In this document: positions 973 through 62,701 of the stretch, in pieces
How the letters are laid out: each line of letters starts with the position of its first letter
How positions within the stretch are numbered: the stretch's first letter is position 1
DNA from: a virus
Taxonomy: Duplodnaviria; Heunggongvirae; Uroviricota; Caudoviricetes
Virus record (IMG/VR): IMGVR_UViG_2695420859_000012
Length of the DNA stretch: 64,000 bases
Reading direction: 5' to 3' (one strand)
The notes under the pieces: model-generated
Seen by the model: only the letters and a program-made list of their open reading frames with translations
Told to the model about the DNA's origin: nothing
Database searches by the model: none
Position numbers and translations under genes: made by a program

Positions 973-1134
973 TTTCTTTTCCTGTTCAGTGTTGGTTGCA
1001 CCCCACAAAGTTGCTGCAACGGCTTCACTATAAATTTAAAATTCTGTTCTTTCTGTAACGCCTAAATGGCCTCTACATCGTTCGATTAACTTGTTCTACC
1101 CGGCGCTAGATTTAAGTTTATGACACCATAAAGT

Positions 1135-1176
1135 GAATCGCCACAGGTTTAATAGACTGAATCGCCACAGGTTTAA
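1135..1176. repeat. Two 18-bp direct repeats (gaatcgccacaggtttaa) separated by 6 bp, upstream of hsdM
   Basis: Exact copies at 1135-1152 and 1159-1176. Confidence 0.6.
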
Positions 1177-1204
1177 CAGACACCTCAGAGTCATTTAAGA
1201 TGAC

Positions 1205-1396
1205 TTAAAGAGAGGTGTACAGCTCGGTATTCAGACCAGTCCACTGACGGCCAACGCCGACAACTTCACCGATACCTTTGTCTTCACCCAATTTGTTTAC
1301 TTTGATGCCAACGTACCCAGGCTCAACACGATCGCAGCCTGTAAGACCCATTGTGCAAACAGCAGCCACGATCACTGCCAGTAAACCTTTCTTCAT
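1205..1396 (-). CDS. Small lipoprotein, function unknown
   Basis: 63 aa; signal peptide with lipobox LTGC (MKKGLLAVIVAAVCTMGLTGC). Confidence 0.5.
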   Translation of the reverse strand: MKKGLLAVIVAAVCTMGLTGCDRVEPGYVGIKVNKLGEDKGIGEVVGVGRQWTGLNTELYTSL

Positions 1397-1399
1397 TAC

Positions 1400-1600
1400 T
1401 TACTTCCCCTTCGAATTAATTAGTGACTTCAGAAAGTTACGACCAACATTAAAGCCGATAACAGGAGCGCCAAAAGCAACAATGATTCCAAGCATTACGG
1501 CAATATCGCTTTTAGCCGAGATCAGCGACGGAACCAGCAAACAGTAGATGAAAACTACAGATATACCTGTAGCCACTGCCATCAGATAGAGTTTGATCAT
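1400..1600 (-). CDS. Small hydrophobic membrane protein, function unknown
   Basis: 66 aa, two hydrophobic segments; abuts the lipoprotein gene. Confidence 0.4.
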   Translation of the reverse strand: MIKLYLMAVATGISVVFIYCLLVPSLISAKSDIAVMLGIIVAFGAPVIGFNVGRNFLKSLINSKGK

Positions 1601-1690
1601 GTGTTTTCCTATGTGGCTATTGTGTGTAGATGGTGAGTAAGTGTTTATATATTTTCAAGGTATAAAGGCGTCCATTCGGACGCCTGAAAA

Positions 1691-4030: not shown

Positions 4031-4032
4031 GA

Positions 4033-4305
4033 TCAGGCTCCTTTTGTTTCGTTGATTCGTTTTAAAGCGGCGGATTCATCGAATACAATCGCATCGTGGT
4101 TAAGGAGTCTGGATACACGAGCGAGGATTTTTACGACCTGCTCGCTGACTAATCCAAACTCGCGATCTGTCGCTTTCATTCCGGCAGCGCCTAGAATTGA
4201 CGGCAGTGCGATGACAGCGTACTCACCGTGATAAAAGACAATCTCTTTTGCCAGTTGGGCAGGGGTGGTTGTAGCGCCATTAATAATTGATTTAAGCATT
4301 AGCAA
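4033..4305 (-). CDS. Hypothetical protein
   Basis: 90-aa ORF packed between exonuclease and recA genes. Confidence 0.4.
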   Translation of the reverse strand: MLMLKSIINGATTTPAQLAKEIVFYHGEYAVIALPSILGAAGMKATDREFGLVSEQVVKILARVSRLLNHDAIVFDESAALKRINETKGA

Positions 4306-5294
4306 TACCTTTCGAATGGAAGAACATACACTTCAAGGTCTTCAAGGAACGAACGGAAATTCAGCTCGTAGCACAGTTGCTCGAATGCTTTCACGTCACG
4401 ATTGCCTTTGATTGTTTCGATTTCGGTAGGCGGAAACTTCGTCTCAATCAGGTTCATTAGCGTGATGTTTCTCTTGAACGCTTCGAGCATTCGACAGCCT
4501 GTTTTCTCGTTGAAGGCATTCTTCGCTAGTTTGTTGAAGGCGGTCTTATGGCGTCCTTTGTCAACCACGATTGAGCCGTCGTTGATGCCGCGTACCATCG
4601 TTGCGACACTTCCCCATTCATGCAGCAGCTCTTTCGCACCGCCAGCACCAATGCCACCAACACCGCTAATGTTGTCCGATTTATCGCCTTGTAATGCTTT
4701 TGCTTCCAAAAATGCGCGAGGAGTAGCGAATCCTGTCAGCTCCGCAAATTGCTCAAAATTAACCTGCTTGTTTTTGGCGTCTTCACGCAGGCTTACCCAG
4801 CTTACGTTTTCACGAACTAACTGAAGCCAGTCGCTATCGCCTGTTAACAGATAGATGTGTTCAACGGTTGGCTGCGGTGCCATGCGGGATACCAGCAGCC
4901 CGGCCAGATCATCCGCTTCTGCATCTTTTGCAATGAGTTGGGTAACTCCAAGCGCGGTCATCATTTTGAGGATGTATGGCTTCTGGATAGCAAAGCCTTC
5001 CTTCATCTTTTTCATATCAGGATCGTCGTCGCGATTTGCTTTGTAGTCCGGGTAAAAGTCGCGACGCTTGTCACTAAATCCATCCCAAAGAATCATAGGT
5101 CGGGCATGGAGGATGGAGGCATAACGACGGACGTTCTTAACAAAGCCGAAAGCAGCCTGTACTTCCATTTCGCCGTTGTGCAATTTGTCAGATTGTTGGT
5201 GGTAATAACCCAGGCTATTGCCATCTACGAAGAGATAATTCACCGGTACATTCCTTCCAAAAAGTAAGGCGTCCGTAGACGCCTTACTGGTCAC
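4299..5294 (-). CDS. 5'-3' exonuclease / flap endonuclease (FEN, RNase H-like)
   Basis: AKDAEADDLAG acidic motif and H3TH-like GDKSDNISGVGGIGAGGAKELL. Confidence 0.75.
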   Translation of the reverse strand: MTSKASTDALLFGRNVPVNYLFVDGNSLGYYHQQSDKLHNGEMEVQAAFGFVKNVRRYASILHARPMILWDGFSDKRRDFYPDYKANRDDDPDMKKMKEGFAIQKPYILKMMTALGVTQLIAKDAEADDLAGLLVSRMAPQPTVEHIYLLTGDSDWLQLVRENVSWVSLREDAKNKQVNFEQFAELTGFATPRAFLEAKALQGDKSDNISGVGGIGAGGAKELLHEWGSVATMVRGINDGSIVVDKGRHKTAFNKLAKNAFNEKTGCRMLEAFKRNITLMNLIETKFPPTEIETIKGNRDVKAFEQLCYELNFRSFLEDLEVYVLPFERYC

Positions 5295-5303
5295 GTAATG
5301 GGA

Positions 5304-6332
5304 TTACAGAGAGTCCAGCTCTCTCAGTAGGTCATCCAGACCTTCATCTTCCGTCGCAGATGCGGCTGCTACAGATGTCGTTGCGACTGCTTCAGACTCT
5401 TTGACTGATACTGCAACGGCAGCGGGACTTGCTTCTGGTTTAAATTCAGTTTCAACGGCACGGAGGATTTCTTCATCAACCAGACTGGTTGGTTCAGAAG
5501 CTGGGGTATGAGCGGTAGCTACAGCAGTCGCACCCTCCGTATGACCAGTGACAGAGCCAAATCCAGGTAGTGCCGCAGCCGATGTTTTCGCGGTTGAGGA
5601 AATTGCTGGTGCAGATGCTGCGGCAGTTGGTGCAGCGATGCCAATCAGACGACCCATAGTGCGAACTGTCGACAGAAGACGAGTTTCATCAGCCTGATTT
5701 GCGTATGCGATCAGATCATGCTGGGTATTCCAGAATTTATCTTCGATATCGCCTTTGTAGACTTTACGCTTAGGCGAGACGTCATATTTGGTATCGCGAC
5801 CAGAGCCAGTACGTTTAATCAGGAATGCGTAGCCTTCCTCTTTGCTCAGTGGATTGCCGATATCATCAGCGATGTCTTCGGTGATTGCTTTGCAGATATC
5901 ATCGAATACAGTAGACGGCAGCTCGATTAACTGGCATTTCTCAGCATCTGCGAAATCCTCACGAGCAGAAAGAATGCCGTTGACCAGGTAGCGAGGAGTG
6001 GCACGCATTTGACCGATGCGTTCTTCCATTGCTTTGTTACCCTTGTGACGAGCGCGACCTTCCATCACCATTTCGCATAGCTGACAAGCGCGACCGTGAG
6101 TATGTTGCTCACAAATATAAGCGTTGGTTGCTTCTTTACCTTCCTCGTTCTGATACTTAACGTAGTGCATACCGAAAGTCTGGAAGAACTTACCGTTTGG
6201 GTCGTCTTTATTCGGGAAGATGCGGATATAGTTGACGCCGTCTTTTAAGCGAGTCAGATCAACGTTGTTACCACGTTTGGCGGCAATGTCTTCACGAGTT
6301 TTGTTAAGCAAATCAAGTAATGTCTTAGACAT
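5304..6332 (-). CDS. Single-stranded DNA-binding protein, T4 gp32-like
   Basis: Recalled similarity to T4 gp32 around the zinc-binding region (IRIFPNKDDPNGKFF...CEQHTHGRACQLCE); Ala/Ser/Thr-rich acidic C-terminal tail. Confidence 0.6.
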   Translation of the reverse strand: MSKTLLDLLNKTREDIAAKRGNNVDLTRLKDGVNYIRIFPNKDDPNGKFFQTFGMHYVKYQNEEGKEATNAYICEQHTHGRACQLCEMVMEGRARHKGNKAMEERIGQMRATPRYLVNGILSAREDFADAEKCQLIELPSTVFDDICKAITEDIADDIGNPLSKEEGYAFLIKRTGSGRDTKYDVSPKRKVYKGDIEDKFWNTQHDLIAYANQADETRLLSTVRTMGRLIGIAAPTAAASAPAISSTAKTSAAALPGFGSVTGHTEGATAVATAHTPASEPTSLVDEEILRAVETEFKPEASPAAVAVSVKESEAVATTSVAAASATEDEGLDDLLRELDSL

Positions 6333-6449: not shown

Positions 6450-6905
6450 TCAACGGGGAGTAATAAAGCGTTCAGAGCCTAATCGCTCTAATTCAACGAT
6501 GGCCATCTTTGACGCCTGAACGATCATGTCTCGGCGATGCGAAAAGGCGGCGACAGCATGTTTGTATATGTCTGCGATGTGCCGTGCTTCATCCAACTTC
6601 TGCCTTTTAGACAGATACTGTGGGTTTGTTTTAACCTTAGCGTCCAGTACAGATTCGTTGAACTTAATGCCGTTCATACTCAAGTTCTTACGCTCTGTGT
6701 CGTATAGCTTTGCTTCAACAGCTTCAAGGTTAAGTTTTGCCTCTGCGACACTTCTTTCTGCATGAGCGAGTTTTGAGCCATACTCCATTAAAAGGCGGGG
6801 TTGTCTACGCCAGACTTCCTCCAGATTGTCTCGGTCAAACTCGAGATCAGACATTATTTTCTCGTAAATATCGGCGATCATGCACATTTCCTTATCACTT
6901 ATCAT
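6450..6905 (-). CDS. Hypothetical protein (position suggests a replication/recombination accessory)
   Basis: 151-aa ORF between SSB and DnaE genes. Confidence 0.4.
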   Translation of the reverse strand: MISDKEMCMIADIYEKIMSDLEFDRDNLEEVWRRQPRLLMEYGSKLAHAERSVAEAKLNLEAVEAKLYDTERKNLSMNGIKFNESVLDAKVKTNPQYLSKRQKLDEARHIADIYKHAVAAFSHRRDMIVQASKMAIVELERLGSERFITPR

Positions 6906-7007
6906 TTTGTATTGATTATATCATTGTAATGATGAGGCAATGAGCTTGAAGATAGGGGGGGTGAGGGGATAAGGGAAAACATGGCCTTTATGGCCATGTT
7001 TATTGGA

Positions 7008-8177
7008 TCACGTCTTAATAGTTTCTGCTACGTCGGCTAATATCGCTTCTAGTCGTTCTCCCTCTTCAGGTCTGAAGTAAAGAATGTTGGGGTTAAACCC
7101 GTAAAAGACAGTAACGTCAAGGTCTGGAAGATACTCCTTCCTGCCGACCAAATCGGATGGCTTGTTTTTGTTGTTAAACAATGAAGTTGCCCGGCTGCCA
7201 CACGTCAGCACATAGGTCGGACGCACCAGATTGATCTCTTCACGCATAAAGTCGGTGAACTGGCCGATCTCGTCTTTGGTGTAGTCTTTTTCTTTGTCTT
7301 TAACCTTCTTGCAAACACCTGTGACATAGAGATCGCCCATGCGTAAATCTCCAGCCGTCAATAGCTTGGCCTTAAAGTCGTCGTATCCGTTCTCCATAAA
7401 GTAACCGGTTCGAGCATCATTGCCGTTCGCATTGTCCAGAATGATCATGATTTTCGGCTTAATACCAATGCTGGGGCGGATTAGTTCATCACCTAAGCCC
7501 ATTTCAGCCGCCATCCGCGTCATGAGTACGTTAATTTCAGCCGAACGTTTGGGGTTCATCTCAAACGGACGTGAGGCTTTAACTGCGTCTATGACAAGGT
7601 TTCCCATCAATTCAGCCTGGTCGCGTAGGCGCTCTGGATCAGTTGCTGGCAGACTGCCTGGCTCGATGGATGCAAACGCCCCTACTTTTTGCAGCGATTC
7701 GCGCACTCGACTATTACAGGCACGTTTCTCGACAGCTTCTTCGAATTGCGCCAGTGACTCGAATTTGCCGCCAACTTTTTCTCGCGCTCTCATGATGGCT
7801 TGGCAGCCATTCTCAGAACACCCCTTCACAGCAGAGAAGGGCGCATACAGCACCTGGCTGCCATCTTCAAGCGTGCGGATCTCGATTCGGTTAGATGACA
7901 CGTTAACGTCTGGTGGCAATACGCGAATGCCATAGGTCAGCGCATCTTTAACCAGCCCCTGGTGTTTATCTTCGCCAAGAATAGTGAGAGCAGCAGCGAA
8001 AAACTCTGCGGGATAATGAGTTTTCAACCACATAGATTGATAACTGATTAAGGAGTAAGCAACAGAGTGTGATTTGTTGAAGGCATACGCGCCGGATTTC
8101 TCAAACATATTCCAGATTTCTTCGGCTCGTTCGTGCGTCAGGCCATTGCTCTCTTCGACAACACCGGTAATTTTCAT
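7008..8177 (-). CDS. dnaE: DNA polymerase III alpha (DnaE-type), C-terminal fragment
   Basis: ERAEEIWNMFEKSGAYAFNKSHSVAYSLISYQSMWLKTHYPAEFFAA matches the DnaE finger region as recalled; GAGG 7 nt before the ATG, which overlaps the HNH stop (ATGA). Confidence 0.8.
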   Translation of the reverse strand: MKITGVVEESNGLTHERAEEIWNMFEKSGAYAFNKSHSVAYSLISYQSMWLKTHYPAEFFAAALTILGEDKHQGLVKDALTYGIRVLPPDVNVSSNRIEIRTLEDGSQVLYAPFSAVKGCSENGCQAIMRAREKVGGKFESLAQFEEAVEKRACNSRVRESLQKVGAFASIEPGSLPATDPERLRDQAELMGNLVIDAVKASRPFEMNPKRSAEINVLMTRMAAEMGLGDELIRPSIGIKPKIMIILDNANGNDARTGYFMENGYDDFKAKLLTAGDLRMGDLYVTGVCKKVKDKEKDYTKDEIGQFTDFMREEINLVRPTYVLTCGSRATSLFNNKNKPSDLVGRKEYLPDLDVTVFYGFNPNILYFRPEEGERLEAILADVAETIKT

Positions 8178-8908
8178 GCAGTCACCTCATCAATCTTCAC
8201 GAACTCATACCCATTGGAGGCCAGCCAGTTCCGTTGGCGCTCCCAGCTCCATATCTCTTCACGCATTTCACTATGCAGGCGAATGTGGGCGTCTTCTGGA
8301 AGTGCTACAAGATTCCCAGGGGCGTTATCTATCGTATCGCGGTTAATATGGTGGACATGTTCATCGTCACGTAGCTCCCGACCGAGACGTTCTTTCGCTA
8401 TCAATCGATGAACGTATTCGTATTGCGAAACGCCATTGTTACCAACCAGCTGCATCATGTAGCCGTTGGTTTTTACGATGATGCCACCTTTGTAGTTGTT
8501 CGCTTCTTCTCCGATCTTTCCGCGTTTGGCAGCCGCCAGCTTTTCCTTCGTCTCCGCGCGGATTGTTCTGCCGGTTAGCTTTTTCGAAACGGTGGCCACT
8601 CGCTCATCGATATCAGCACGCAGACCGGCATTCCACGAGGTTTTCCCATACATAGGGTTGCCAGTGCCAGTCCGGGCTTCGGAGAGACGCTTCATACGTT
8701 CGTCATTATTTTTGTTTTTGCCACGATTCCAGGCTGGGGTAGCGGAGATCCGCGCGCTTCCGCGCCTGATCCCCCATTTGGCTAATAAGCGGTCAATATT
8801 TGCCTTGCTGCAACCAGCTTCGGCGGCAATGTCTTCTTTTCTCATCAGGTCAACCATGTAACGCTGACGTAACCATTCTTCTGTGATTTTGTACTTCGTA
8901 CTCGGCAT
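8174..8908 (-). CDS. HNH homing endonuclease inserted within dnaE
   Basis: HNH motif EHVHHINRDTIDNAPGNLVALPEDAH; separate frame and start. Confidence 0.8.
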   Translation of the reverse strand: MPSTKYKITEEWLRQRYMVDLMRKEDIAAEAGCSKANIDRLLAKWGIRRGSARISATPAWNRGKNKNNDERMKRLSEARTGTGNPMYGKTSWNAGLRADIDERVATVSKKLTGRTIRAETKEKLAAAKRGKIGEEANNYKGGIIVKTNGYMMQLVGNNGVSQYEYVHRLIAKERLGRELRDDEHVHHINRDTIDNAPGNLVALPEDAHIRLHSEMREEIWSWERQRNWLASNGYEFVKIDEVTA

Positions 8909-8956
8909 TTCTAAGACTCACTAAACAAATTGTTTTCTTATCTTATAAATTAATTC

Positions 8957-11320
8957 TCAAATATCGAAGCTCGTTATGTCGGCATTTATTGCCATTGCTT
9001 CGGCATAAGTGCGACGCTCACCATCAGCACAAAGTAGGCGTGCTGCTTTATGGATTTTTCTCGTAGAACCATCATCCAGTGACACTGTCACCCAGCCTTC
9101 CTCCGCTCGCTTAATGAAGTCGCCGCCAATGGATTTCATTTTCTCCATATCTTTTTTCCCGATCGCTTTCCTGACCGAGTCTGCTTCCGCCATTGAGAAC
9201 CCCGCCAAGATTCGCGTAGCAGCCATGATCTGTTCCTGATAAATCAGAACTCCGTTTGTGTCGCGAGAGATGTCGTCCAGCATTGGGTGTAAGGAATGTG
9301 GGGCCATGAAGCCTTTGGCCACGGACACATAATCGTCCAACATGCCGGATTGAATCGGGCCAGGTCGGAAGAGCGCAGTTGTAGCGACGACCGTTTTAAA
9401 GCTCATTGGCTCAATTCCACCACCTAAATCTTTAAGCAGCTTGCGCATTGGGCCTGATTCAAGCTGGAATACGCCCTGTGTATACCCTGCAGCAAAACCA
9501 TCCAGCACCTTGCGATCTTCAAGAGAAATGGCATCAAGATTGATATCTTCACCTGTGTTCTCTTTTATGTAGCGTTTTGCACTATCGAGCAAATCGAGAG
9601 TTGCCAGGCCAAGCACGTCCAGCTTAATTAGGCCCATAGCCTCGCAGTAACGCTTGTCAAATGCGATACAACGCGCGTCACCACGGCGTTCAACCGGTGT
9701 ACGTTCTGTCAGAGGAACACCTGCTACGATCATCCCTGCCGCATGTCTACCAAAGCCACGCATAAGGCTTTGTAACTTGCAGGCTGCATTGAATGCATCA
9801 GGATATTTTGTTGCGTATTTGTCGAGACTTGCCAGTTGTTCGCGCAGCTCTTCCAATGGAAGGCTATCATCCTCGACGTTCTTCAGTTCTTTTGATACCG
9901 CCATATCTGCGGACTCCACACCATAAATACGAGCGGTGTCACGTAGTGCAGAGGCTGCGCCCAGGTAGGTGAAGTTCGGAATGCCTGCAACGTAATCTTC
10001 GCCGTAGCGTTCATTCAGATACTCGATCACCTCATGGCGACGTGCCTGGCTGAAGTCCAAGTCCGCATCCGGCAAGTCGAGACGCTCAGGGTTGATGAAA
10101 CGCTCAAACAGAAGACCGTGACGGATTGGGTCGACGTTGGTTATGCCTATGCACCACGCCACCAGAGAACCGGCAGAGGAACCACGACCAGGCCCGACAG
10201 GAATGCCAGTTTCACGGCTGTGATTCATCAGATCGCGTACCATCAGGAAGTAACCACAAAATCCCAGGCGAGTAAGCGTGTCCATTTCGTACTTAAGTCG
10301 CTCAACATAAACCCTGTTCTCAGAAGCAGGTGGTGTGTATCCAAACTCTTTTGTGGTAAGACGTTTACGCAGCCCTGCAACAGCCAGTTTCATCAGCGTT
10401 GCAGGTTCGTCGTCTGCCATCTTGGGCAGTGCTGGTGGCAATTCATGCCAGCGCCATGTGCAGGCATCGATAATGGAGTCCTGCGTTGTTGAGGCCATTG
10501 CAGCTGTTACCGGCACATCCATGCGAACGGAGAAGGCTTTAAGCGCCTCAAGGAGATGGCGACGACCATTGATGGCGTTATCTCGCTGGTGGGGGATACG
10601 CAGACGATGCGGCTGGTCGATTTTTATGTTGTTCGTAACCATGTGCGCAATGTCTTTAATGTCTGCATCGTCGATCGATTCGTAATAAGCGGGATAGAAC
10701 GCTACTGGCTCTATTTTCAGTGCGCTGGCGACTTTCATCGCCCGGACGTTAATCTGGTCGTAGAATGGGGTAGGGTGCGGATAAACCACACTATAGAAGT
10801 TGTCTTTTCCACCCGCTGTAATCAGTGTGCTTATGATTTTTGCAAAATCGTTGCGTTGGAACACGCTACCGATGTCGGAAGTAAGCAGGATGATGTTGCC
10901 TTTGGCATATGTAGAAACCAACTGTTCGAGCGAGAGACGCGGTACAAAGTAGAACTGTTCTCGTGTGTTGGCCGCCGTCATTAGTTCGCAGATGTCGCGA
11001 TATCCTTTCTCATTTTTAATTAGAGCGGTAAACGAGTAGTTACGTCCTCGCTCTAATGATTCCATACATCTCATAGATTCTTTAGCAAGTTTAGCCCGGT
11101 GCTCGTATGTGGGATCATCAACAATGTTTAGTTTCACACCACAAATAACCGCCATGTCGTCACCAGCGGCACGTTGTAGTGGAATAACGCTCGCAATATT
11201 CATGCTATCTGCTGAAATTACAGCGGTGTAGCCAGCTTCTCTGGCAATCTTCACCGCGTTTTCTGCTTTTAGAGCCGACTCCCCAAGTGAGAAGTCAGTT
11301 CGAACCATCAGTGCCTTCAT
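8957..11320 (-). CDS. dnaE: DNA polymerase III alpha (DnaE-type), N-terminal part
   Basis: GYFLMVRDLMNHSRETGIPVGPGRGSSAGSLVAWCIGITNVDPIRHGLLFERFINPERLDLPDADLDF matches the DnaE catalytic core as recalled; ORF stops 44 codons after the point where similarity to uninterrupted DnaE ends. Confidence 0.85.
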   Translation of the reverse strand: MKALMVRTDFSLGESALKAENAVKIAREAGYTAVISADSMNIASVIPLQRAAGDDMAVICGVKLNIVDDPTYEHRAKLAKESMRCMESLERGRNYSFTALIKNEKGYRDICELMTAANTREQFYFVPRLSLEQLVSTYAKGNIILLTSDIGSVFQRNDFAKIISTLITAGGKDNFYSVVYPHPTPFYDQINVRAMKVASALKIEPVAFYPAYYESIDDADIKDIAHMVTNNIKIDQPHRLRIPHQRDNAINGRRHLLEALKAFSVRMDVPVTAAMASTTQDSIIDACTWRWHELPPALPKMADDEPATLMKLAVAGLRKRLTTKEFGYTPPASENRVYVERLKYEMDTLTRLGFCGYFLMVRDLMNHSRETGIPVGPGRGSSAGSLVAWCIGITNVDPIRHGLLFERFINPERLDLPDADLDFSQARRHEVIEYLNERYGEDYVAGIPNFTYLGAASALRDTARIYGVESADMAVSKELKNVEDDSLPLEELREQLASLDKYATKYPDAFNAACKLQSLMRGFGRHAAGMIVAGVPLTERTPVERRGDARCIAFDKRYCEAMGLIKLDVLGLATLDLLDSAKRYIKENTGEDINLDAISLEDRKVLDGFAAGYTQGVFQLESGPMRKLLKDLGGGIEPMSFKTVVATTALFRPGPIQSGMLDDYVSVAKGFMAPHSLHPMLDDISRDTNGVLIYQEQIMAATRILAGFSMAEADSVRKAIGKKDMEKMKSIGGDFIKRAEEGWVTVSLDDGSTRKIHKAARLLCADGERRTYAEAMAINADITSFDI

Positions 11321-11498
11321 GTGTTTTTACCTTTCTGGTTTTTTTGATTTTGTCATTGGGGAAGCCTACGAACTTCCCATGCATCGAAATCGCAACTTCT
11401 TTTGCTGATTGGTGACAATCGGGCTTGTCTGGACACACCAGACAAGCCTTACCTGTTTCAGAAGCAGCGATAAGAGAGCCGAAACATCCTTTACGCAC
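11295..11498 (-). CDS. Small Cys-rich hypothetical protein
   Basis: 67 aa with CLVCPDKPDC; overlaps dnaE start by 26 bp. Confidence 0.3.
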   Translation of the reverse strand: MRKGCFGSLIAASETGKACLVCPDKPDCHQSAKEVAISMHGKFVGFPNDKIKKTRKVKTHEGTDGSN

Positions 11499-11500
11499 GA

Positions 11501-12736
11501 TTAACCAAATATTTTTTGAACAACTTCACGAGCCGCTTGTGCAGAAGCTGAAGGGAGTTTGTTAATGAAAGAACGCTCAATACCTGTCACAAAGTCGCCT
11601 CGCATCATTCCAATCTTGGCTGACAACAAAAGTTCACGAGGGCCAATTGGCTGACTAATAAGGTGTTCTTCGTATCCATCGCGAACGATACCGGCAAACT
11701 TAACCATCTTTTCAGCGTATTCATCCACGATGCCTGCATTTGTCAACATGTTGATCTCTGCGTCTTTGCTCATGTATTTCACATTCGAAACGATGCCAAA
11801 ACGCGAAAAGTTCGCGGCGTTCTGGATGTTTGTACCCTGGTACAAGCCGGTTTCATCACCAGATCCGTTCGTGTTGCCAGTGCCAATGAAAGCAAACCGT
11901 TCATGCGGAGTAATGCGACGCCATTCTGGAGTTGCCTCTTTGATGACCAACGCTTCACCTTCCAGCACTGGCTGATACACGCCAAGAATTTGTGGAAACG
12001 CAAAGTCGTATTCATCCGCGAGGTAAACCCAGCCATGCTTCATTGCGAGCGCAAGCAAGCCAGGTTCGAAATACGTAGAGCCATCACGCGCCAGAATTTG
12101 CCCCGTAACATGTGCCTCTTCCATTGATGCTGTATGTTGGGCACGGATCAACGGACGATTGAGCAAAGCACATAGCTGTGTAGGCAATGACGATTTGCCT
12201 GTTCCTGCATGACCCCACAAATAGCCAGGTATGCCAAGTTCAAGCATCATGAAAATATCTTTGATCAGTTCGAAGTCGCCATATACGTAGCCCTTCTTCA
12301 CTTCTGGAACGAACTCTGGATACGGCGTATTGACGTTGACGCTAACCATGAGCGGCGTCCCACGTTTTGTTCCGAGTTCTTCCACCGTTACGTTTAGCAG
12401 TTCGTGAGCTGCGACCAGATCTGTCTTGTACTCAACTGTGCCTGTGTAGCCAGGGCTACTGGTCAAGACAGAAGATTTGGCCATTTCGCTTTTTTGCTCG
12501 GCACGTTTAGCTTGAATTGCATCAAGTGCCTTTTTCGATAGCGTTGGTTCATCTGGAAACTGCGTTGTGTACATTTTCAGTACGGTGTCAGGATCGGCAT
12601 CTTTTACTGACTCAGGAATGCCCTCGCAATTACCATTGGCTACATGGGACTTAAAATAGTGAAATGATTTGCCGCACCACTTGCAAACAAGGTAATCAGA
12701 AGGATTTTTTTCATTTTGCAGTGCAGTAGTCGTCAT
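11501..12736 (-). CDS. AAA+ ATPase, MoxR/CobS-like
   Basis: Walker A GHAGTGKSS; N-terminal CxxC; adjacent to a vWA protein. Confidence 0.7.
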   Translation of the reverse strand: MTTTALQNEKNPSDYLVCKWCGKSFHYFKSHVANGNCEGIPESVKDADPDTVLKMYTTQFPDEPTLSKKALDAIQAKRAEQKSEMAKSSVLTSSPGYTGTVEYKTDLVAAHELLNVTVEELGTKRGTPLMVSVNVNTPYPEFVPEVKKGYVYGDFELIKDIFMMLELGIPGYLWGHAGTGKSSLPTQLCALLNRPLIRAQHTASMEEAHVTGQILARDGSTYFEPGLLALAMKHGWVYLADEYDFAFPQILGVYQPVLEGEALVIKEATPEWRRITPHERFAFIGTGNTNGSGDETGLYQGTNIQNAANFSRFGIVSNVKYMSKDAEINMLTNAGIVDEYAEKMVKFAGIVRDGYEEHLISQPIGPRELLLSAKIGMMRGDFVTGIERSFINKLPSASAQAAREVVQKIFG

Positions 12737-12831
12737 GCGTTTTTCCTTTGTTCTCTAATGAGCGTTCAACTTCTTATATAAATATATCATTATATATCGT
12801 AAGTGGTTACTTATCGTTAAGGCTGTTTTGT

Positions 12832-14940
12832 TCACTTTAAAATGATACGAGATAGTTCAGTAACTACAGATGAACCAAGACTATCAACGCTCGTTACCAG
12901 GGCATGATTTGAGTAAAATCTCTCCGGTGCGTCAGTCATGATGCCAATTGCCATCAAATCAATATCAGTCTGCGTTTCAATTTGCTTCGCAACTGAACGC
13001 AAATGAGCGTCAAAACCTCTCCCAACAGCCCACGGCGCGCCATCACTCAGAACAAGCATGATCTTCCTGTCCTCCATGCGACCGGAAAATAACGATGCAA
13101 GGCTGGCTATGCTTTCACCATCCACGTTATTAAGAAGTGGGAATGTGTAGCCTACGCACCCCATACGTGAGCGAACTTCGCGAGAATTTACCTTTTCATT
13201 CCAATTTTTGATGATAGGTAGCATTAAAGATTCAAAGCGAGAGAACTCATACTTGACAGCCTTAAGTTCTCCTGCCGCCATATGACTACCAAATGTAGTG
13301 AAGCCGGTGATAATGTTGGGAACATTTATTCGATCAAGGGCATCGGCGATGGTATATGCACTTGCAAGAGCCAGTTTAATCGTTATACCACTCATTGAAC
13401 CTGATAAATCAATCACTTGTTGAACACAGGCGTTAACGGCTTTAGATTCTTCTTTTTTACGAAACACGCGAGCATCATTCATTGCTAATCTGTAGATACT
13501 AGAACCATGAATGCGCCCCCGACGCTGGCCCGGTATAAACTGAACTCTGTTTCTGCTTGCTATTGCTCGCTCCAGGTCTTTTGCCAGCGTCGACGAAACA
13601 CCTGACGAAAGATGCTTTTCAATATATTTGTCGAAGAGCTGGTTGCCTTCAGGAACGATGCGATAGCGGCTGATTGGATATCCTCCCAAATCAATATCGG
13701 AGAATGTTTTAATAAGCCGTTTGATATGGGCTTCTGCCTGATCAATCGAGCCGATGAAGTCGTATGAGCGATTGTATGGCCTGTATTCGCTTTTCGAGCT
13801 TTCTGTTAACTCGCTTTTAATCGTTTCGGATAGAGCATCTTCTGTCATGCCTCCGACTTCATCTTCTATGCTATCCAGCTCCTCTAAAGCCTCTTCCAGA
13901 CTCATTTTTGACGGAGTTGGGATATCTGAAGAGCCATCTTCTGTCGTTTTTCTTTTTTCGTGGTCAGCGGTTAATGATTCTGACGCCGCGTTATCAGAAG
14001 CATCAGAATCTGATACCTCTTTATCATTTTCTGTATCATCGAATATTGTTTCTGATGATTCAGAATTATCTGAATCATCACTGTCGCTATTATCATGTTT
14101 GTACTTACTATGTGATTCTGATTTGATAGATTTGTGATTATCTAACACTGAGGGTGTCTCATGATCTTCGTTGTCTTCATTGTTTTCTCCAGAGGCATCC
14201 GTCTGGTCAGCGTCTGAAGGATCGGAAGTTTTTCCCGGAGCTGACTCCTTACCTTTGCTTTCACTTTCAGTGTCTTTGAGGATCTTAGCTATGGTCGCAG
14301 CCACCTTTACACAATCCTCGGTGCAAGACATGTTACGCACGGCCACATCGATACCATGTTCTTTTAATAATGAAATTGGTTTCTCAATGACAGGCCAATG
14401 TTCATCCATGAAATCTACGAACGGTGCTTGGCCATCCCAGGCTCTTACAACCGGACAGAGAAAGAAGTTTAGAAAAAGCGCGCGCTGATCTTTGCCACAA
14501 TAAGCAATAGCCTCTGAAGCCTTTGGTTTAAAGACTTTTTCGATTATAAGGCGCTGAGTTGCCATCAGATTACGTCTTGTTCCGTTAAAGACCTGACCCA
14601 TTTTTCGCTCGATGAACACGTCTTCTAAGGCATTCCATAGCGACCAGGAAGGAACGCGTCCTTTTTCTCTCATTTTGTTGGACACACGAATATCGGTAAA
14701 CAAAATGTGAGCAACCTCATGATCGAGAAATCCGCGCACAGCATTCATCAATGCCGGTGTTGCGTTATCCGGGATTGATGGGATGTTTACGAAAATTGGC
14801 TCTCCATCATCGTTATAGCGTACATAAGCGTCGTCCCCTCGTTCTGCAACAGGGATGTTTTTACCTGAAAGGAGAGCGACTACTCGTTTTACACTGTCAC
14901 GGAAGTCCTGAACCTCTTTGATGGAACGTTTTTTAGACAT
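12832..14940 (-). CDS. vWA-domain protein with acidic linker, CobT-like partner of the AAA+ ATPase
   Basis: C-terminal MIDAS-like DLSGSMSG; long Asp/Ser/Glu-rich low-complexity middle region. Confidence 0.65.
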   Translation of the reverse strand: MSKKRSIKEVQDFRDSVKRVVALLSGKNIPVAERGDDAYVRYNDDGEPIFVNIPSIPDNATPALMNAVRGFLDHEVAHILFTDIRVSNKMREKGRVPSWSLWNALEDVFIERKMGQVFNGTRRNLMATQRLIIEKVFKPKASEAIAYCGKDQRALFLNFFLCPVVRAWDGQAPFVDFMDEHWPVIEKPISLLKEHGIDVAVRNMSCTEDCVKVAATIAKILKDTESESKGKESAPGKTSDPSDADQTDASGENNEDNEDHETPSVLDNHKSIKSESHSKYKHDNSDSDDSDNSESSETIFDDTENDKEVSDSDASDNAASESLTADHEKRKTTEDGSSDIPTPSKMSLEEALEELDSIEDEVGGMTEDALSETIKSELTESSKSEYRPYNRSYDFIGSIDQAEAHIKRLIKTFSDIDLGGYPISRYRIVPEGNQLFDKYIEKHLSSGVSSTLAKDLERAIASRNRVQFIPGQRRGRIHGSSIYRLAMNDARVFRKKEESKAVNACVQQVIDLSGSMSGITIKLALASAYTIADALDRINVPNIITGFTTFGSHMAAGELKAVKYEFSRFESLMLPIIKNWNEKVNSREVRSRMGCVGYTFPLLNNVDGESIASLASLFSGRMEDRKIMLVLSDGAPWAVGRGFDAHLRSVAKQIETQTDIDLMAIGIMTDAPERFYSNHALVTSVDSLGSSVVTELSRIILK

Positions 14941-15038
14941 GGCTAATCCTTTGTTATGAAAACAAATTATTTACTAGTGTGTTTAATGTAGCACTGCGCG
15001 AATAGGGAACTAAGCCATTCGCGCAGGGAGAAGAGGGG

Positions 15039-15251
15039 TTAACAGATTCTGACGGCTAAAGACCCGGAGCCGATATTGAGAAGCGTGAAGCGTTTGTTGT
15101 TAAGTTCGAATATAAAGCCAGTTGTGTCATTCACACCAACCTGAATCTGCTCATTCGGTAGATCGGTGAGGATGTCAGCTACACACTCATCAGCTAATTT
15201 CTGTACGTGTCCGATCTCAAGAGCGATTAGGCTGGAAATAGTGGTGTTCAT
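15039..15251 (-). CDS. Hypothetical protein
   Basis: 70-aa ORF; preceded by hairpin ctgcgcgaat...attcgcgcag at about 14984-15026. Confidence 0.3.
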   Translation of the reverse strand: MNTTISSLIALEIGHVQKLADECVADILTDLPNEQIQVGVNDTTGFIFELNNKRFTLLNIGSGSLAVRIC

Positions 15252-15457
15252 TCAATCAATCCATTCTAACTTATACTATGGTAAGGAATACTACTAAAAT
15301 TTATATCAATACTGAATACATTCATATCATATGCAAGTTAATTTTCTTACCTGTTTTGGGCTAATTTTTCTCCGTGCAATGGCCTTTAACCGGTCTTTTA
15401 AGTGCCTATCGAAAAAAATGATAATAGCTTTACAACCCTAACCTTTGATGTAATATC

Positions 15458-15471
15458 GGTAAGCACTTACC
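15458..15471. promoter_or_regulatory. Dyad GGTAAG-CA-CTTACC upstream of the XRE regulator gene
   Basis: 14-bp palindrome about 30 bp upstream of the ATG at 15503. Confidence 0.4.
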
Positions 15472-15502
15472 AGAGAGAATTGAACGCGCAAAGGTTGTAA
15501 CA

Positions 15503-15889
15503 ATGTCTGACAACAAGATTGAATTTATAGAAAGTCGCTATGCTGCTTTTATCGCAGGGCTGATTGAATCCTCACCTATGAGTCAGGCCCAAATAGCCAG
15601 ACTTATTGGTTATAAAAATGCCAACAACCTTTCTTTAATTAAAAGTGGCAAAATTCCTTTGCCTATCGATAAGGTTCGTCCGTTGGCGCTGGCGCTGGGT
15701 ATTGAGCCAAGTCGTCTTATGATGATGGTGCTGGAAGAACGCCAACCTGAACTCGCAGCATTTTTATACAAAGAAGGCACCGCTCCTCTTAACGAGGACG
15801 AAAAACAGGTTCTTGCTGCATATAACGAGCGATTCGGTAAAGAGAAAGGCGCATCACAAAAGGTTGTTGAGGCCATAAAGTCTCTATGA
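15503..15889 (+). CDS. HTH transcriptional regulator (XRE-like)
   Basis: HTH-like segment MSQAQIARLIGYKNANNLSLIKSGK; plus strand, 3' end overlaps recombinase 3' end. Confidence 0.6.
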   Translation: MSDNKIEFIESRYAAFIAGLIESSPMSQAQIARLIGYKNANNLSLIKSGKIPLPIDKVRPLALALGIEPSRLMMMVLEERQPELAAFLYKEGTAPLNEDEKQVLAAYNERFGKEKGASQKVVEAIKSL

Positions 15890-17976: not shown

Positions 17977-18005
17977 AAAGGCCTATATGGGCCTTTTCAT
18001 TTTTA
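17976..18005. terminator. Intrinsic terminator hairpin between convergent genes
   Basis: aaaaggcc-tatatg-ggcctttt followed by cattttta. Confidence 0.6.
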
Positions 18006-18248
18006 TAGTGTACTCACCAGCGCCGCAAATTCCGTATACCCCCCAATATGCTCTCCATGTATGAATATCTGAGGTATGGTATCCACTGGTTTACCAACCT
18101 GGTTGCTCAACGTTTCTTTGTTGATCCCCGCAGATGTAATATCTATATACTCATAATCACCGTAGCCATGTCCCTTTAGTTGCTTCGCCAACTCGACCGC
18201 ACGTTTGCAGTATGAGCAGTTATCTCGTCCGTAGATAGTGATCGTCAT
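18003..18248 (-). CDS. Glutaredoxin (NrdH-like redoxin)
   Basis: 81 aa with CSYC active site (MTITIYGRDNCSYCKRAVELA). Confidence 0.8.
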   Translation of the reverse strand: MTITIYGRDNCSYCKRAVELAKQLKGHGYGDYEYIDITSAGINKETLSNQVGKPVDTIPQIFIHGEHIGGYTEFAALVSTL

Positions 18249-18421
18249 AACTTAACAAATACCTTTATAAATATTGATTCGAACATATCAGACTATACTA
18301 CAAACAGATTTTTTTGATAAGTATGTAGTAACTTATTGATTGACTAGTAAACAATTGAAGTGATTACGACAATAGATTACAGTAAGGATTGCCTTGAAAT
18401 GTACATTTTATAGAGGTTTTA

Positions 18422-19330
18422 ATGATTGGTAAGTTGTCTGATTCTTTGATTGAAAATAAATACAACGAATTTAGAGAAGAAATATCTTTACTTTTTGACT
18501 ATTTAAATCAGATAAATGATACAACAAAGAAAAATATAAAACGTCTTCTTAAAGAAGTGGAGTATGCACAAAATCCAGATACTATTATTAATATTAATGA
18601 AACTATTAAGATTAAGTGTGGCACAACGTTAGCTCGCCATTTATGTTCAAACCCATATACAGGTTCAACATTAGAGATAGGTAACAGCGCCATTGATTTA
18701 GAAGAAAAGATAAGATTGTGTAATACTTTGAAAAATAAACAATATCAGTGGGTTATTACTGAAGCCTATGAGTTACTGGAAGACTATATTGAGGCAATAT
18801 ATGTCTATACTGTATGTGTTCGAAATGATTTATGGTCCTCAAGTGATTTTGGTAAGGTTGAAGATGATGAAATTGGGAAAAGGGAAGTTTATTACAGATT
18901 ATTAAAAGCAAAAAGTAACCCATCGAAAAAAATAACTAAAATTTTCAGAAATAAAATACCTGGCTTCAAAGAGATAGAAACAAACAACAAGATTGGCAAA
19001 AACTATCGCTTTAACATCAAGCTAATTGAACTACTAAGACATACAATAGTACACAATAGTGGACGATTCAATGATACAGAAAAATTTATAAATAAGGTTT
19101 TAGATGAATCTGAAATAAACGGTAAGAAAAGAGTTATTGGAGAAAGAGCTGTTAGAAGTTACATTACTAAAGTGCAAGAAGATGATATTGTGATGCTCTT
19201 AGAAAGACCATCTGAAATTTTAGGTTCTTTTGGTGGGTATTTTAACAGAGCAAAATTTTTACTAAGTGATATTTTAGAATACTCACTAATCATTAAAGAA
19301 GAACTAAAATCATATCTAGGCAATCATTAA
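18422..19330 (+). CDS. AT-rich cargo protein with HEPN-like Rx4H motif; candidate abortive-infection/defence protein
   Basis: 302 aa; LLRHTIVHNSG (R206-x4-H211); Lys/Asn/Ile-rich; AGAGG RBS; own terminator. Confidence 0.45.
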   Translation: MIGKLSDSLIENKYNEFREEISLLFDYLNQINDTTKKNIKRLLKEVEYAQNPDTIININETIKIKCGTTLARHLCSNPYTGSTLEIGNSAIDLEEKIRLCNTLKNKQYQWVITEAYELLEDYIEAIYVYTVCVRNDLWSSSDFGKVEDDEIGKREVYYRLLKAKSNPSKKITKIFRNKIPGFKEIETNNKIGKNYRFNIKLIELLRHTIVHNSGRFNDTEKFINKVLDESEINGKKRVIGERAVRSYITKVQEDDIVMLLERPSEILGSFGGYFNRAKFLLSDILEYSLIIKEELKSYLGNH

Positions 19331-19331
19331 C

Positions 19332-19362
19332 AAAAAAGGGGCCGAAGCCCCTTTGGATTTTG
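19332..19362 (+). terminator. Rho-independent terminator
   Basis: aaaaggggc-cgaa-gcccctttt then ggatttt. Confidence 0.7.
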
Positions 19363-19427
19363 CGCTTAAAAAAGTGTTGCTAGGATGTTAGCAAGCTATG
19401 GTTAAGAACGTCTGCCGTAATTGTCTA

Positions 19428-19505
19428 TCACAGCGTTGAGCGGTCTGGTTTATGTTAGCGGAGTCTTAATCGAGTTGATTAAAAGGCCAAACCGCTCAAC
19501 GCTGT
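19428..19505. repeat. Long stem-loop (15-bp inverted repeat cacagcgttgagcgg / ccgctcaacgctgtg) abutting tRNA-Ser 3' end
   Basis: Perfect 15-bp arms, about 48-nt loop. Confidence 0.6.
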
Positions 19506-19507
19506 GT

Positions 19508-19594
19508 CTGGCGGAGAGTAATGGAATCGAACCATCATCGCTTGCGCAATGGGACGGTTTTCAAGACCGCTTGAGCACCATGCTCCCTACTCTC
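19508..19594 (-). tRNA. tRNA-Ser (anticodon UGA), type II, CCA encoded
   Basis: Own cloverleaf: acceptor GGAGAGU/ACUCUCC, anticodon loop CUUGAAA, long variable arm, T-loop GGTTCGATTCC. Confidence 0.7.
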
Positions 19595-19694
19595 CAGCTA
19601 TTGTGATGGTCGGTGCTGAACTCCGACACAGGGTTGTAGCAAGCCCCGCAAAGCGCGCACTACTGTAGTTGCGGCACATCAGCCTGTGCATTCA

Positions 19695-19773
19695 TCACAA
19701 CGGTAAGATCACTACCTTTCGACCAGTCATTGTGCACATGAACGACGATTAACCGTAATGATCTTATCGTTGT
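19695..19773. repeat. Stem-loop of the CACAACGGTAAGA family
   Basis: cacaacggtaagatcac pairs with atgatcttatcgttgtg. Confidence 0.55.
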
Positions 19774-19824
19774 GTTGTGAAGCCAGATGCTTATCTTCTG
19801 GTTGCTTCAAAGAGCTGCACTTCC

Positions 19825-19913
19825 TCACAACGGTAAGAGCACTGGTCTGACTCTATCGATTTACGGCCTTGTGGGTCAGTATCGCCGATTCGCCCAATGC
19901 TCTTACCTGTTGT
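19825..19913. repeat. Stem-loop of the CACAACGGTAAGA family abutting tRNA-Thr 3' end
   Basis: cacaacggtaagagca pairs with tgctcttacctgttgtg. Confidence 0.55.
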
Positions 19914-19914
19914 G

Positions 19915-19990
19915 TTGGTGCCGGTTAACGGACTTGAACCGCTGGCCATTCGCTTACAAAGCGACTGCTCTACCAACTGAGCTAAACCGG
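19915..19990 (-). tRNA. tRNA-Thr (anticodon UGU), CCA encoded
   Basis: Own cloverleaf: acceptor GCCGGUU/AACCGGC, anticodon loop UUUGUAA, T-loop GGTTCAAGTCC; 76 nt. Confidence 0.65.
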
Positions 19991-19994
19991 CAAT

Positions 19995-20081
19995 TTGGTG
20001 GGGAGTGATGGAGTCGAACCACCCGAGTCGCCATGACAGTAGATTTACAGTCTACACCGCTACCTCTACGGACTAACTCCC
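19995..20081 (-). tRNA. tRNA-Tyr (anticodon GUA), type II, CCA encoded
   Basis: Acceptor GGGGAGU/ACUCCCC, anticodon stem GUAGA/UCUAC with loop CUGUAAA, long variable arm. Confidence 0.7.
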
Positions 20082-20735: not shown

Positions 20736-20940
20736 TGCGTTCTGCAATCACACTCGCTCAGTGTGTCCCATTTCGGTAACGAGGCTGGAAACTGACCTCG
20801 CTGGTGTTTGGCTTATTAGGCTACTGCCAGATAGACTTCTTCGTTTGCACTTGTATTTAAGTTCAAACAGTCGCGTCTCAACGAAAACAAAGTCATCTTA
20901 TACATAAAAGATAGGTAAGTAAATACTTATCGAAATGTTT

Positions 20941-24384: not shown

Positions 24385-24509
24385 ACCAACTCCTAGCTAA
24401 CAGATGAAAGTATTCTTACAAAAAACTAAGTATGTATCTACTTATCATTTTAGGCGCAATAGTTCCCTATACGAAGATGCCGGGCTTATAGTCTGCCCGG
24501 CATTCACCA

Positions 24510-29797: not shown

Positions 29798-29852
29798 CCT
29801 GCTTCCGTATATATTTAATAAGTTACTTATTATTTATATATACAGAAGCAGG
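29798..29852. repeat. 55-bp palindromic element, copy 1
   Basis: cctgcttccgtatatatttaataagttacttattatttatatatacagaagcagg; identical to 62647-62701. Confidence 0.9.
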
Positions 29853-40166: not shown

Positions 40167-40258
40167 GTTGAATATGCTCCTTGATTTGGTGGGCTATCCT
40201 TGCCCACCATTAAGTATGTACCTACTTATTTTTACCGATATAAATATTTTTTTCTACA

Positions 40259-53576: not shown

Positions 53577-53650
53577 TGATGGAAAACTCCTTTTTCCGTT
53601 AATTCTACGCATTCATTGCGCTAATAGTAAGTATATACTTACCGATTAAC

Positions 53651-62646: not shown

Positions 62647-62701
62647 CCTGCTTCCGTATATATTTAATAAGTTACTTATTATTTATATATACAGAAGCAG
62701 G
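62647..62701. repeat. 55-bp palindromic element, copy 2
   Basis: Identical to 29798-29852; between terS start and the 88-aa gene. Confidence 0.9.

Follow-up and report, generated by a model that had tools for sequence, protein, structure and literature searches.

Introduction

The best-matching solved relative of the system treated here is the cobaltochelatase CobSTN, the structure of which has been presented in a preprint (bioRxiv 10.64898/2026.07.21.739949; PDB 9ujv, 9uka). Here, CobS forms a hexameric ring with a Walker A motif (G71-S78), a Walker B motif (D141-E142), a sensor-1 residue (N186) and an arginine finger (R210). CobT contains an N-domain resembling the M48C peptidase fold, a disordered linker of ~90 residues, a shaft (Q373-R413) which enters the ring, as well as a vWA domain whose MIDAS (an adhesion site that depends on a metal ion) is formed by D422, S424, S426, N518 and D546, while CobN is bound between the two CobT domains. 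A related gene pair is present in the IMG/VR virus record IMGVR_UViG_2695420859_000012, of which 64,000 nucleotides, the whole stretch of DNA analysed and hereafter the window, represent an SSU5-like Escherichia coli phage-plasmid. The pair consists of a cobT-like gene (12832-14940, 702 aa) and a cobS-like gene (11501-12736, 411 aa), both called as open reading frames (ORFs) with an ATG start on the minus strand, where also all protein features described below are located.

The pair as such is already known. It occurs in hundreds of annotated RefSeq plasmids, has its own PHROG families and is part of a published cobST cluster; also a fusion of a metallopeptidase with a vWA domain has been published. 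It belongs to the more widespread gene pairs of tailed phages, being found in coliphage-like phage-plasmids, in cyanophage-like relatives of T4 and in phages of actinobacteria and haloarchaea, and cobS/cobT is routinely counted as an auxiliary metabolic gene (AMG) for vitamin B12. What is added here is the contrast in the HExxH motif between the phage proteins and the chelatase, the argument of the missing CobN for Enterobacteriaceae, the synteny with replication genes and a set of small cysteine-rich features.

The pair is related to the cobalt chelatase of B12 synthesis but almost certainly does a different job. The reading we favour, at slightly better than even chances, is that of an ATP-driven MoxR-MIDAS machine which would remodel, and possibly cleave, a protein client in the replication phase of the phage.

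Family assignment of the pair

The 411-aa protein matches the Pfam family AAA_5 (2.1e-15) as well as phrog_249 (1.7e-106), and its best match in the PDB is the solved cobaltochelatase CobS (9ujv_A, 1.1e-25), followed by midasin, CbbQ and NorQ. For the 702-aa protein, Pfam returned CobT for aa 9-294 (1.1e-26) and CobT_C for aa 492-701 (3.3e-82), and the PHROG family is phrog_1576 (1.9e-300). Against the solved CobT (9uka_G), E-values of 6.9e-17 with the single sequence and of 3.1e-61 with the family profile were obtained, and the structures nearest to the vWA domain of its AlphaFold2 (AF2) model are NorD and the MIDAS domain of midasin. On the level of families, homology to cobaltochelatase CobS and CobT is secure by these sequence comparisons. 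A preliminary description, made from the letters of the DNA, had named a MoxR/CobS-like ATPase with a GHAGTGKS motif next to a 702-aa vWA protein with a DLSGS motif. Both assignments hold in the profiles (AAA_5/CobS as well as CobT and CobT_C, with no assignment to unrelated families) and in the direct translation, in which the Walker A motif GHAGTGKS lies at aa 175-182 (nt 12191-12214) and the MIDAS motif DLSGS at aa 511-515 (nt 13396-13410). An AAA_5 ATPase thus adjoins a vWA protein with an intact MIDAS, which is the arrangement of a MoxR-class AAA+ ATPase with a vWA/MIDAS adaptor.

The homology, which is real over the AAA+ core, the shaft and the vWA/MIDAS domain, is also a ground for the usual AMG reading, in which both proteins are genuine cobaltochelatase subunits. 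Here, viral CobS and CobT would hijack the CobN of the host and increase the amount of cobalamin, for example for a B12-dependent ribonucleotide reductase, as has been proposed by Liu et al. 2021 (PMC8651126) and for phage ICP2. The public annotation of the pair as 'cobalamin/porphyrin biosynthesis' points in the same direction, and a setting among genes of nucleotide and DNA metabolism would be compatible with it. However, the equivalog models of NCBIfam, which mark genuine subunits, are not reached: the score is 86.6 bits for the CobS equivalog TIGR01650 (cut-off 558.55) and 65.7 bits for the CobT equivalog TIGR01651 (cut-off 759.05), the latter with a match covering only aa 295-697. Because both proteins stay far below these cut-offs, the phage-plasmid pair is, as judged from sequence, made up of relatives and not of orthologues of the chelatase subunits.

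The HExxH motif of the CobT-like protein

The N-terminal domain of the CobT-like protein (aa 1-232, 14245-14940) is a homologue of CobT_N. In the AF2 model of the 702-aa protein, which was calculated from a multiple sequence alignment and reached a predicted local distance difference test score (pLDDT) of 84.7, it consists of a helix, a three-stranded sheet and a helical bundle, an order of secondary structure elements that agrees with the published description of CobT_N. Within this domain the translation reads HEVAH (14707-14721), a HExxH zincin motif with H74, E75 and H78, followed by the stretch EDVFIE (14608-14625) with E106, D107 and E111. In the alignments all six residues are invariant, so that the HExxH of a zincin is accompanied by downstream acidic residues, and E106, D107 and E111 may include the third metal ligand or assist it.

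The distribution of the motif was followed by an exhaustive HMMER search with aa 1-227 as query against cluster representatives at 50% identity (E<=1e-3), which returned 1116 cluster representatives. Among the matches listed, all 127 full-length proteins (127/127) contain HExxH within the first 200 residues together with DxSxS in the C-terminal part.

For the genuine CobT, a homologue search seeded with the solved protein yielded only N-terminally truncated proteins, and therefore the N-terminus was read from genomic DNA, namely from a locus of Brucellaceae (L002), across an assembly frameshift. The protein obtained in this way is 99% identical to the solved CobT chain over the C-terminal 270 residues, and its numbering agrees with the residues named in the CobSTN preprint (P24, F25, A28, R34, I72, R76 and D80). 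The sequence R69-G-F-L-D73-H-E-V-A-H78 of the phage-plasmid protein corresponds to R76-G-L-G-D80-S-M-A-L-R85 in genuine CobT. A genome scan revealed D-[SA]-x-[AG]-L-[RK] at the position of HExxH in 80/80 species of Hyphomicrobiales. Since the motif is replaced in all of these species as well as in the solved lineage, the chelatase CobT is, on sequence level, a pseudo-peptidase, and a zincin site that looks catalytic is kept by the phage proteins. This loss in the chelatase and retention in the phages is a further point against genuine chelatase subunits. In the Brucellaceae locus (1024-5380), cobS and the frameshifted cobT adjoin bolA and a gene encoding a DnaJ domain, and not a cobalamin operon.

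Matches of the phage proteins to profiles of peptidase families are weak, with DUF2201_N found in 2/60 members (best 1.7e-4) and Peptidase_M48 in 1/60 (0.068).

Missing partner and substrate of a chelatase

A cobaltochelatase would need CobN. The window contains no CobN-like ORF, its three ORFs of 1385-1576 aa being the tail fibre, the tail-tip protein J and the tape measure, and in 73 viral loci carrying relatives of the pair no neighbour of the size of CobN is present. As for the hosts, according to a review E. coli has lost the de novo synthesis of cobalamin, and Salmonella inserts cobalt early via CbiK and not via CobNST (PMC5282855). According to this literature, neither CobN nor hydrogenobyrinic acid a,c-diamide should be expected in the hosts of the element, and without them the pair could not work as a cobaltochelatase here. 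Together with the scores and the motif, this makes genuine chelatase subunits very improbable, and for hosts like E. coli, in which both CobN and the aerobic pathway are lacking, the B12 label is very probably incorrect.

Since the equivalog cut-offs are missed, the host should, by the literature, offer no CobN partner and the HExxH motif is intact, 'CobS/CobT-like' is the correct wording and 'cobalamin biosynthesis' an incorrect one. In the record of the phage-plasmid Cyrano (OV696614.1) the pair is labeled 'dimethylbenzimidazole phosphoribosyltransferase' and 'cobalamin synthetase'; this is an annotation error arising from a name collision with the unrelated CobT and CobS of Salmonella, which act in nucleotide-loop assembly. 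The label 'porphyrin biosynthesis' is used in other records.

The ATPase and the remaining parts of the adaptor

The AAA+ core of the CobS-like protein (11504-12316) contains, according to the alignment, the Walker A motif G175-S182, the Walker B motif D241-E242, the sensor-1 residue N288 and the arginine finger R312. K181, D241, E242, N288 and R312 are identical in 39/39 aligned phage homologues and correspond to K77, D141, E142, N186 and R210 of the solved CobS.

Outside the core the phage-type protein departs from the chelatase subunit. An alignment of the 39 phage homologues with true CobS revealed an N-terminal extension (aa 1-140, 12317-12736) not found in cellular CobS. It holds a CxxC-x4-H-x4-H knuckle (CKWCGKSFHYFKSH, aa 18-31, nt 12644-12685), which cellular CobS does not possess and of which C18, H26 and H31 are kept in 60–65% of the phage homologues; this knuckle is possibly a zinc-binding recognition module. 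The Pfam family CobS_N has no match in the 411-aa protein and does have one in the cellular CobS of the Brucellaceae locus. Furthermore, residues 317-326 of CobS, the C-terminal helix alpha10 which packs on CobT_N, have no counterpart in phage-type CobS. A different N-terminus and a missing packing helix are again unfavorable to chelatase subunits. One contact between the two proteins appears to be retained: the salt bridge D80-R312 of the chelatase, connecting CobT_N to CobS, corresponds in the window to the invariant D73 and to K408, a position with R/K in 34/39 homologues, so that the bridge from the N-domain to the small domain would be preserved.

In the CobT-like protein, the N-domain is followed by a linker rich in Asp, Glu and Ser (aa 233-345, 13906-14244), as seen in composition and in the model. 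Its 113 residues include 33 D+E, 32 S+T and 10 K+R, and the pLDDT of the AlphaFold model falls below 50 over residues 237-337, which predicts disorder. The long acidic Asp/Ser-rich linker of the preliminary description is thereby borne out. The segment aa 464-503 (13432-13551) aligns to residues ~373-413 of 9uka_G and would by homology act as the equivalent of the CobT shaft; G475 within it is invariant. The C-terminal vWA domain (12835-13431) has an intact MIDAS formed by D511, S513, S515, N605 and D633, which are invariant or nearly so across 81 homologues and equal D422, S424, S426, N518 and D546 of the solved CobT.

Genomic context of the pair

In the window the gene order is intein-containing RecA, 5'-3' exonuclease, gp32-type single-stranded DNA-binding protein (SSB), a phrog_2058 protein, a DnaE split by an HNH endonuclease, a 67-aa protein with four cysteines, the cobS-like and the cobT-like gene, a 70-aa ORF, a helix-turn-helix (HTH) gene and an integrase. 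The whole block from RecA to integrase lies on the minus strand except the divergent HTH gene. The DnaE-type polymerase (8957-11320) is located immediately downstream of the pair, and the HTH gene (15503-15889), the integrase and a stretch of lower GC content are located upstream. A position in the replication module, between the polymerase and an accessory island, had been proposed before, and the block of RecA, exonuclease, SSB and DnaE on one side and the HTH gene, integrase and lower GC content on the other are in agreement with it.

The same neighborhood recurs elsewhere. ORFs were called and clustered in the 73 viral loci, 69 of which carry cobT, and in 48 of these 69 a cobS-like gene is adjacent and co-directional; several of the remaining loci are contig ends or loci of high GC content in which a spurious antisense ORF masks cobS. 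Three contexts were observed. The first one (~25 loci, the window included) runs from HTH, small ORF, cobT and cobS, sometimes via a sigma factor, to the 4-Cys protein (phrog_3616), DnaE, phrog_2058 and SSB. The second one is T4-like and consists of late sigma factor, Mre11, Rad50, cobT and cobS, and in the third one cobT and cobS are followed by one more gene and a DnaB-like helicase (DnaB/primase). All three contexts are replication or recombination modules. Full-length relatives are also present in phages of Gordonia, Brevibacterium and haloarchaea, as found in a library of predicted structures. That such pairs occur in phages, as stated in the preliminary description, is already evident from the cobST cluster of tailed viruses.

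This context bears on the idea of a chaperone pair for virion assembly, which would act on head or tail and whose peptidase domain would process structural proteins. Such a role has been proposed for jumbo phages with the Acidianus two-tailed virus (ATV) as precedent (PMC7824862); ORF892 of ATV matches the model weakly in structure (rank 36), and the intact peptidase-like motif would suit the processing step. Against it, the recurrent contexts hold replication and recombination genes and not structural ones, although synteny is indirect evidence of timing, and the structural genes of the window begin more than 20 kb away. We consider virion assembly unlikely.

A second idea starts from DnaE. 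The pair might insert a metal cofactor or mature a client in the manner of NorQ-NorD, which brings iron into NO reductase, or of CbbQ-CbbO, which activates Rubisco, and the candidate client would be the PHP-domain DnaE encoded two genes downstream. NorD, NorQ and CbbQ are indeed among the nearest solved relatives, DnaE follows cobT-cobS in ~23 loci and the DnaE of the window has a PHP domain, and small cysteine-rich proteins and the Cys/His knuckle accompany the pair. However, the T4-like and the DnaB-type contexts do not contain DnaE, which therefore is not a universal client, and nothing links the HExxH site to the delivery of a metal. A metal chaperone of this kind is thus improbable.

A conflict module, either a protease directed at a host protein for anti-defense or host takeover or a defense system borne by the phage-plasmid, has also to be considered, since conflict systems of bacteria commonly include MoxR-vWA pairs (PMC7159879). 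On the identical plasmid, a type I restriction-modification system is located near the pair, and the N-domain shows a weak match to the anti-CRISPR protein AcrIIA26 (9zq6_B). This match comprises 45 residues (aa 92-136, ~14533-14667, with the pattern N-x-x-E-D-x-F-I-E...G) at an E-value of 0.0016; AcrIIA26 has been described as a novel acidic fold with no link to zincins, and the match is probably due to chance. PADLOC-DB 2.0 returned no meaningful match, the only one being DrmE for the vWA protein (9.9e-4, 15.8 bits) and none for the ATPase. Furthermore, the pair is core-like, being conserved in lytic phages of many hosts, and does not behave as a gene of a variable island. Consequently, there is little to recommend a conflict module, which we regard as very doubtful.

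Proposed mechanism

In the machine that we favour, the CobS-like protein would be a MoxR-class AAA+ ATPase forming a hexameric ring and the CobT-like protein its adaptor, with a MIDAS vWA domain, a shaft-homologous segment preceding it, a zincin-like N-terminal domain and an acidic linker of ~110 residues. The shaft would insert into the pore of the ATPase, and the N-domain would dock on the small domain of the ATPase. The MIDAS face would then bind an acidic residue of the client protein, and ATP hydrolysis would pull or rotate the adaptor and thereby remodel the client. As output, a zinc-dependent cleavage or processing of the client is envisaged and not the insertion of a metal into a corrin, because the phage clade keeps the invariant HExxH and the downstream Glu/Asp which are lost in genuine CobT. 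Conserved synteny would place this action in the DNA replication and recombination phase of the phage program. The architecture of the complex is drawn by homology to midasin and to CobSTN and NorQD as solved by cryo-EM, and the invariance of the motif suggests that a proteolytic step would probably take place.

Several observations weigh against this machine. Searches of the literature yielded no functional experiment with cobS or cobT of any phage. The phage clade does not conserve those residues of CobS that contact the shaft, and a shaft-in-pore geometry is therefore extrapolated. The N-domain profile returned no solved peptidase from the PDB, and missed CobT_N as well. All fold matches of the full-length model fall on the vWA domain. 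An intact HExxH is evidence of constraint and not of proteolysis, and a metal could conceivably be bound for another purpose. The sample of cellular CobT comes from the one order Hyphomicrobiales, as a scan with a mixed alignment returned no other. Finally, synteny with replication genes may reflect only a shared early or middle timing of expression.

A bolder form of the proposal is an ATP-gated metalloprotease, in which the MoxR ring would, by means of the MIDAS adaptor, capture a particular protein of host or phage in the replication phase and pass it to the HExxH site of the adaptor for cleavage; in that case, the CobT of the cellular cobaltochelatase would represent a branch of this older machine that became a pseudo-peptidase. 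We put this forward tentatively, as a possibility that we would not bet on at present. If it is true, the marker cobS/cobT, which viromics uses as an AMG for B12 synthesis, would be mis-assigned for much of the virosphere. The motif kept in phages and lost in the chelatase is a concrete and testable handle, and SSU5-like phage-plasmids are genetically tractable. The outcome would correct an annotation and might reveal a new function in the replication phase, and nothing fundamental would be overturned.

Element, neighboring genes and regulatory features

The stretch holding the pair (11295-15260, 3,966 bp) is 100% identical to the E. coli plasmid pM160133_p3 (NZ_CP022167.1, RefSeq). Its identity amounts to 98.5% with Cyrano, a phage-plasmid in E. 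coli LF82, and to ~74% with the Salmonella phage SSU5, and it is matched in 464 plasmid records, mostly of Enterobacteriaceae. Cyrano has been described as a functional SSU5-like siphovirus, whose plasmid state is present in ~5.5 copies per cell.

Between cobS and dnaE lies the ORF of the 67-aa 4-Cys protein (11295-11498, minus strand), which overlaps the start of dnaE by 26 nt. It carries the motif GCFG-x12-13-C-x2-C-x5-C and matches phrog_6337 (3.2e-45) and phrog_3616 (4.3e-5). The longer phrog_3616 family (~200 aa) has the same N-terminal 4-Cys motif and, in 17 viral loci, is encoded at this very place between cobS and dnaE. Based on this synteny, the small protein is a possible accessory component of the pair.

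The DnaE polymerase is encoded in two ORFs on the minus strand, one of 787 aa for the N-terminal part (8957-11320) and one of 389 aa for the C-terminal part (7008-8177), separated by the ORF of a 244-aa HNH/NUMOD3 endonuclease (8174-8908). A relative (L003), the cobT-like protein of which is 98% identical, has an intact dnaE of 1172 aa, and other loci are split likewise. Rfam gave no match in 6900-15600, neither a group I intron where dnaE is split nor a known RNA between cobT and cobS, and because Rfam detects no such intron the arrangement looks like the insertion of a free-standing homing endonuclease resulting in a two-piece DnaE. The RecA-like recombinase (779 aa, 1691-4030, minus strand) harbors an intein that includes a homing endonuclease domain of the LAGLIDADG type, as Intein_splicing and LAGLIDADG_3 match inside the RecA match. 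The stretch at 18001-20000, just past the integrase, has a GC content of 0.376 compared to ~0.47 elsewhere, which fits the accessory island noted earlier.

The two genes of the pair are co-directional and separated by a spacer of 95 nt, and each start is preceded 7-12 nt 5' by a Shine-Dalgarno-like AAGGA. The spacer contains the palindrome ATAAGTAACCACTTA (12800-12814), which was detected by motif scan, lies 64 nt upstream of the cobS start and is followed on the coding strand by a -10-like TATAAT. The same palindrome or the variant AAGTCA-N4-TGACTT is found in the cobT-cobS spacer of most among 21 listed loci with the DnaE-type context. The count of strict palindromes in short related loci is only weakly above the expectation from mononucleotide shuffling. 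In the window, nine sites, of which eight are intergenic, carry the pattern (A/G)ATAAGT-N1-8-ACTTA, with 13 matches against 0.19 expected. Besides the spacer site, these are 18318-18335, 20916-20929, 24427-24444, 29819-29829, 40211-40228, 53628-53641, 59119-59136 and 62668-62678, and the palindromes stand upstream of operons in replication and structural modules alike. By sequence and position, the palindrome would probably serve as a dispersed element of operator or promoter type, and the conserved HTH gene (15503-15889) is a candidate for its regulator. With such an element in the spacer, transcription of cobS and the polymerase genes could proceed apart from cobT.

Two of the sites, at approximately 29807-29850 and 62656-62699 and thus 33 kb apart, share ~44 nt of identical sequence (ATATATAAATAATAAGTAACTTATTAAATATATACGGAAGCAGG), and because this identity surrounds both palindromes they appear to form a longer regulatory repeat in two copies. 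Between the 70-aa ORF and the start of cobT, a 10-bp inverted repeat (CTGCGCGAAT...ATTCGCGCAG) with a 13-nt loop is present (14994-15026), which is not followed by a T-run and could be a regulatory hairpin or an operator. RNA folding of the cobT-cobS spacer is not unusually stable (z = -0.7), and a simple scan of the coding strand for promoters and terminators gave nothing useful.

Comparison with known systems

Several pairs of a MoxR-class ATPase and an adaptor are available for comparison, namely NorQ-NorD, CbbQ-CbbO, RavA-ViaA and midasin (Rea1/MDN1). To our knowledge, none of these adaptors contains a HExxH domain. Their clients are NO reductase, Rubisco, respiratory complexes and pre-60S factors, respectively, and for these no counterpart was identified here.

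With CobSTN, the pair of the window shares the AAA+ core, in which the residues of Walker A, Walker B, sensor-1 and arginine finger are identical, and the CobT-like protein has the same order of N-domain, acidic disordered linker, shaft-like segment and vWA domain with full MIDAS. In contrast to the pair of the window, CobSTN has lost the HExxH motif, has CobS_N in place of the Cys/His extension of ~140 aa and possesses the last helix of CobS. The residues contacting the shaft also differ, and the pair of the window stands in a phage replication context with no CobN.

The family to which the pair belongs is the cobST cluster (PHROGs 249 and 1576) of tailed viruses infecting bacteria and archaea (Liu et al. 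2021, PMC8651126). The two genes are arranged there in the same way, the cluster is present in phages of many host orders, and there is no structural difference, whereas the published reading of a hijacked host CobN does not fit the Enterobacteriaceae host of this element.

Compared by description, the pair also resembles that of group 2.2 jumbo phages, reported independently, in which a MoxR ATPase is located beside a vWA protein whose N-terminal domain is a metallopeptidase (Iyer et al. 2021, PMC7824862). There, a role in virion assembly has been proposed, whereas the surroundings of the pair in the window and in the 73 viral loci are those of replication or recombination.

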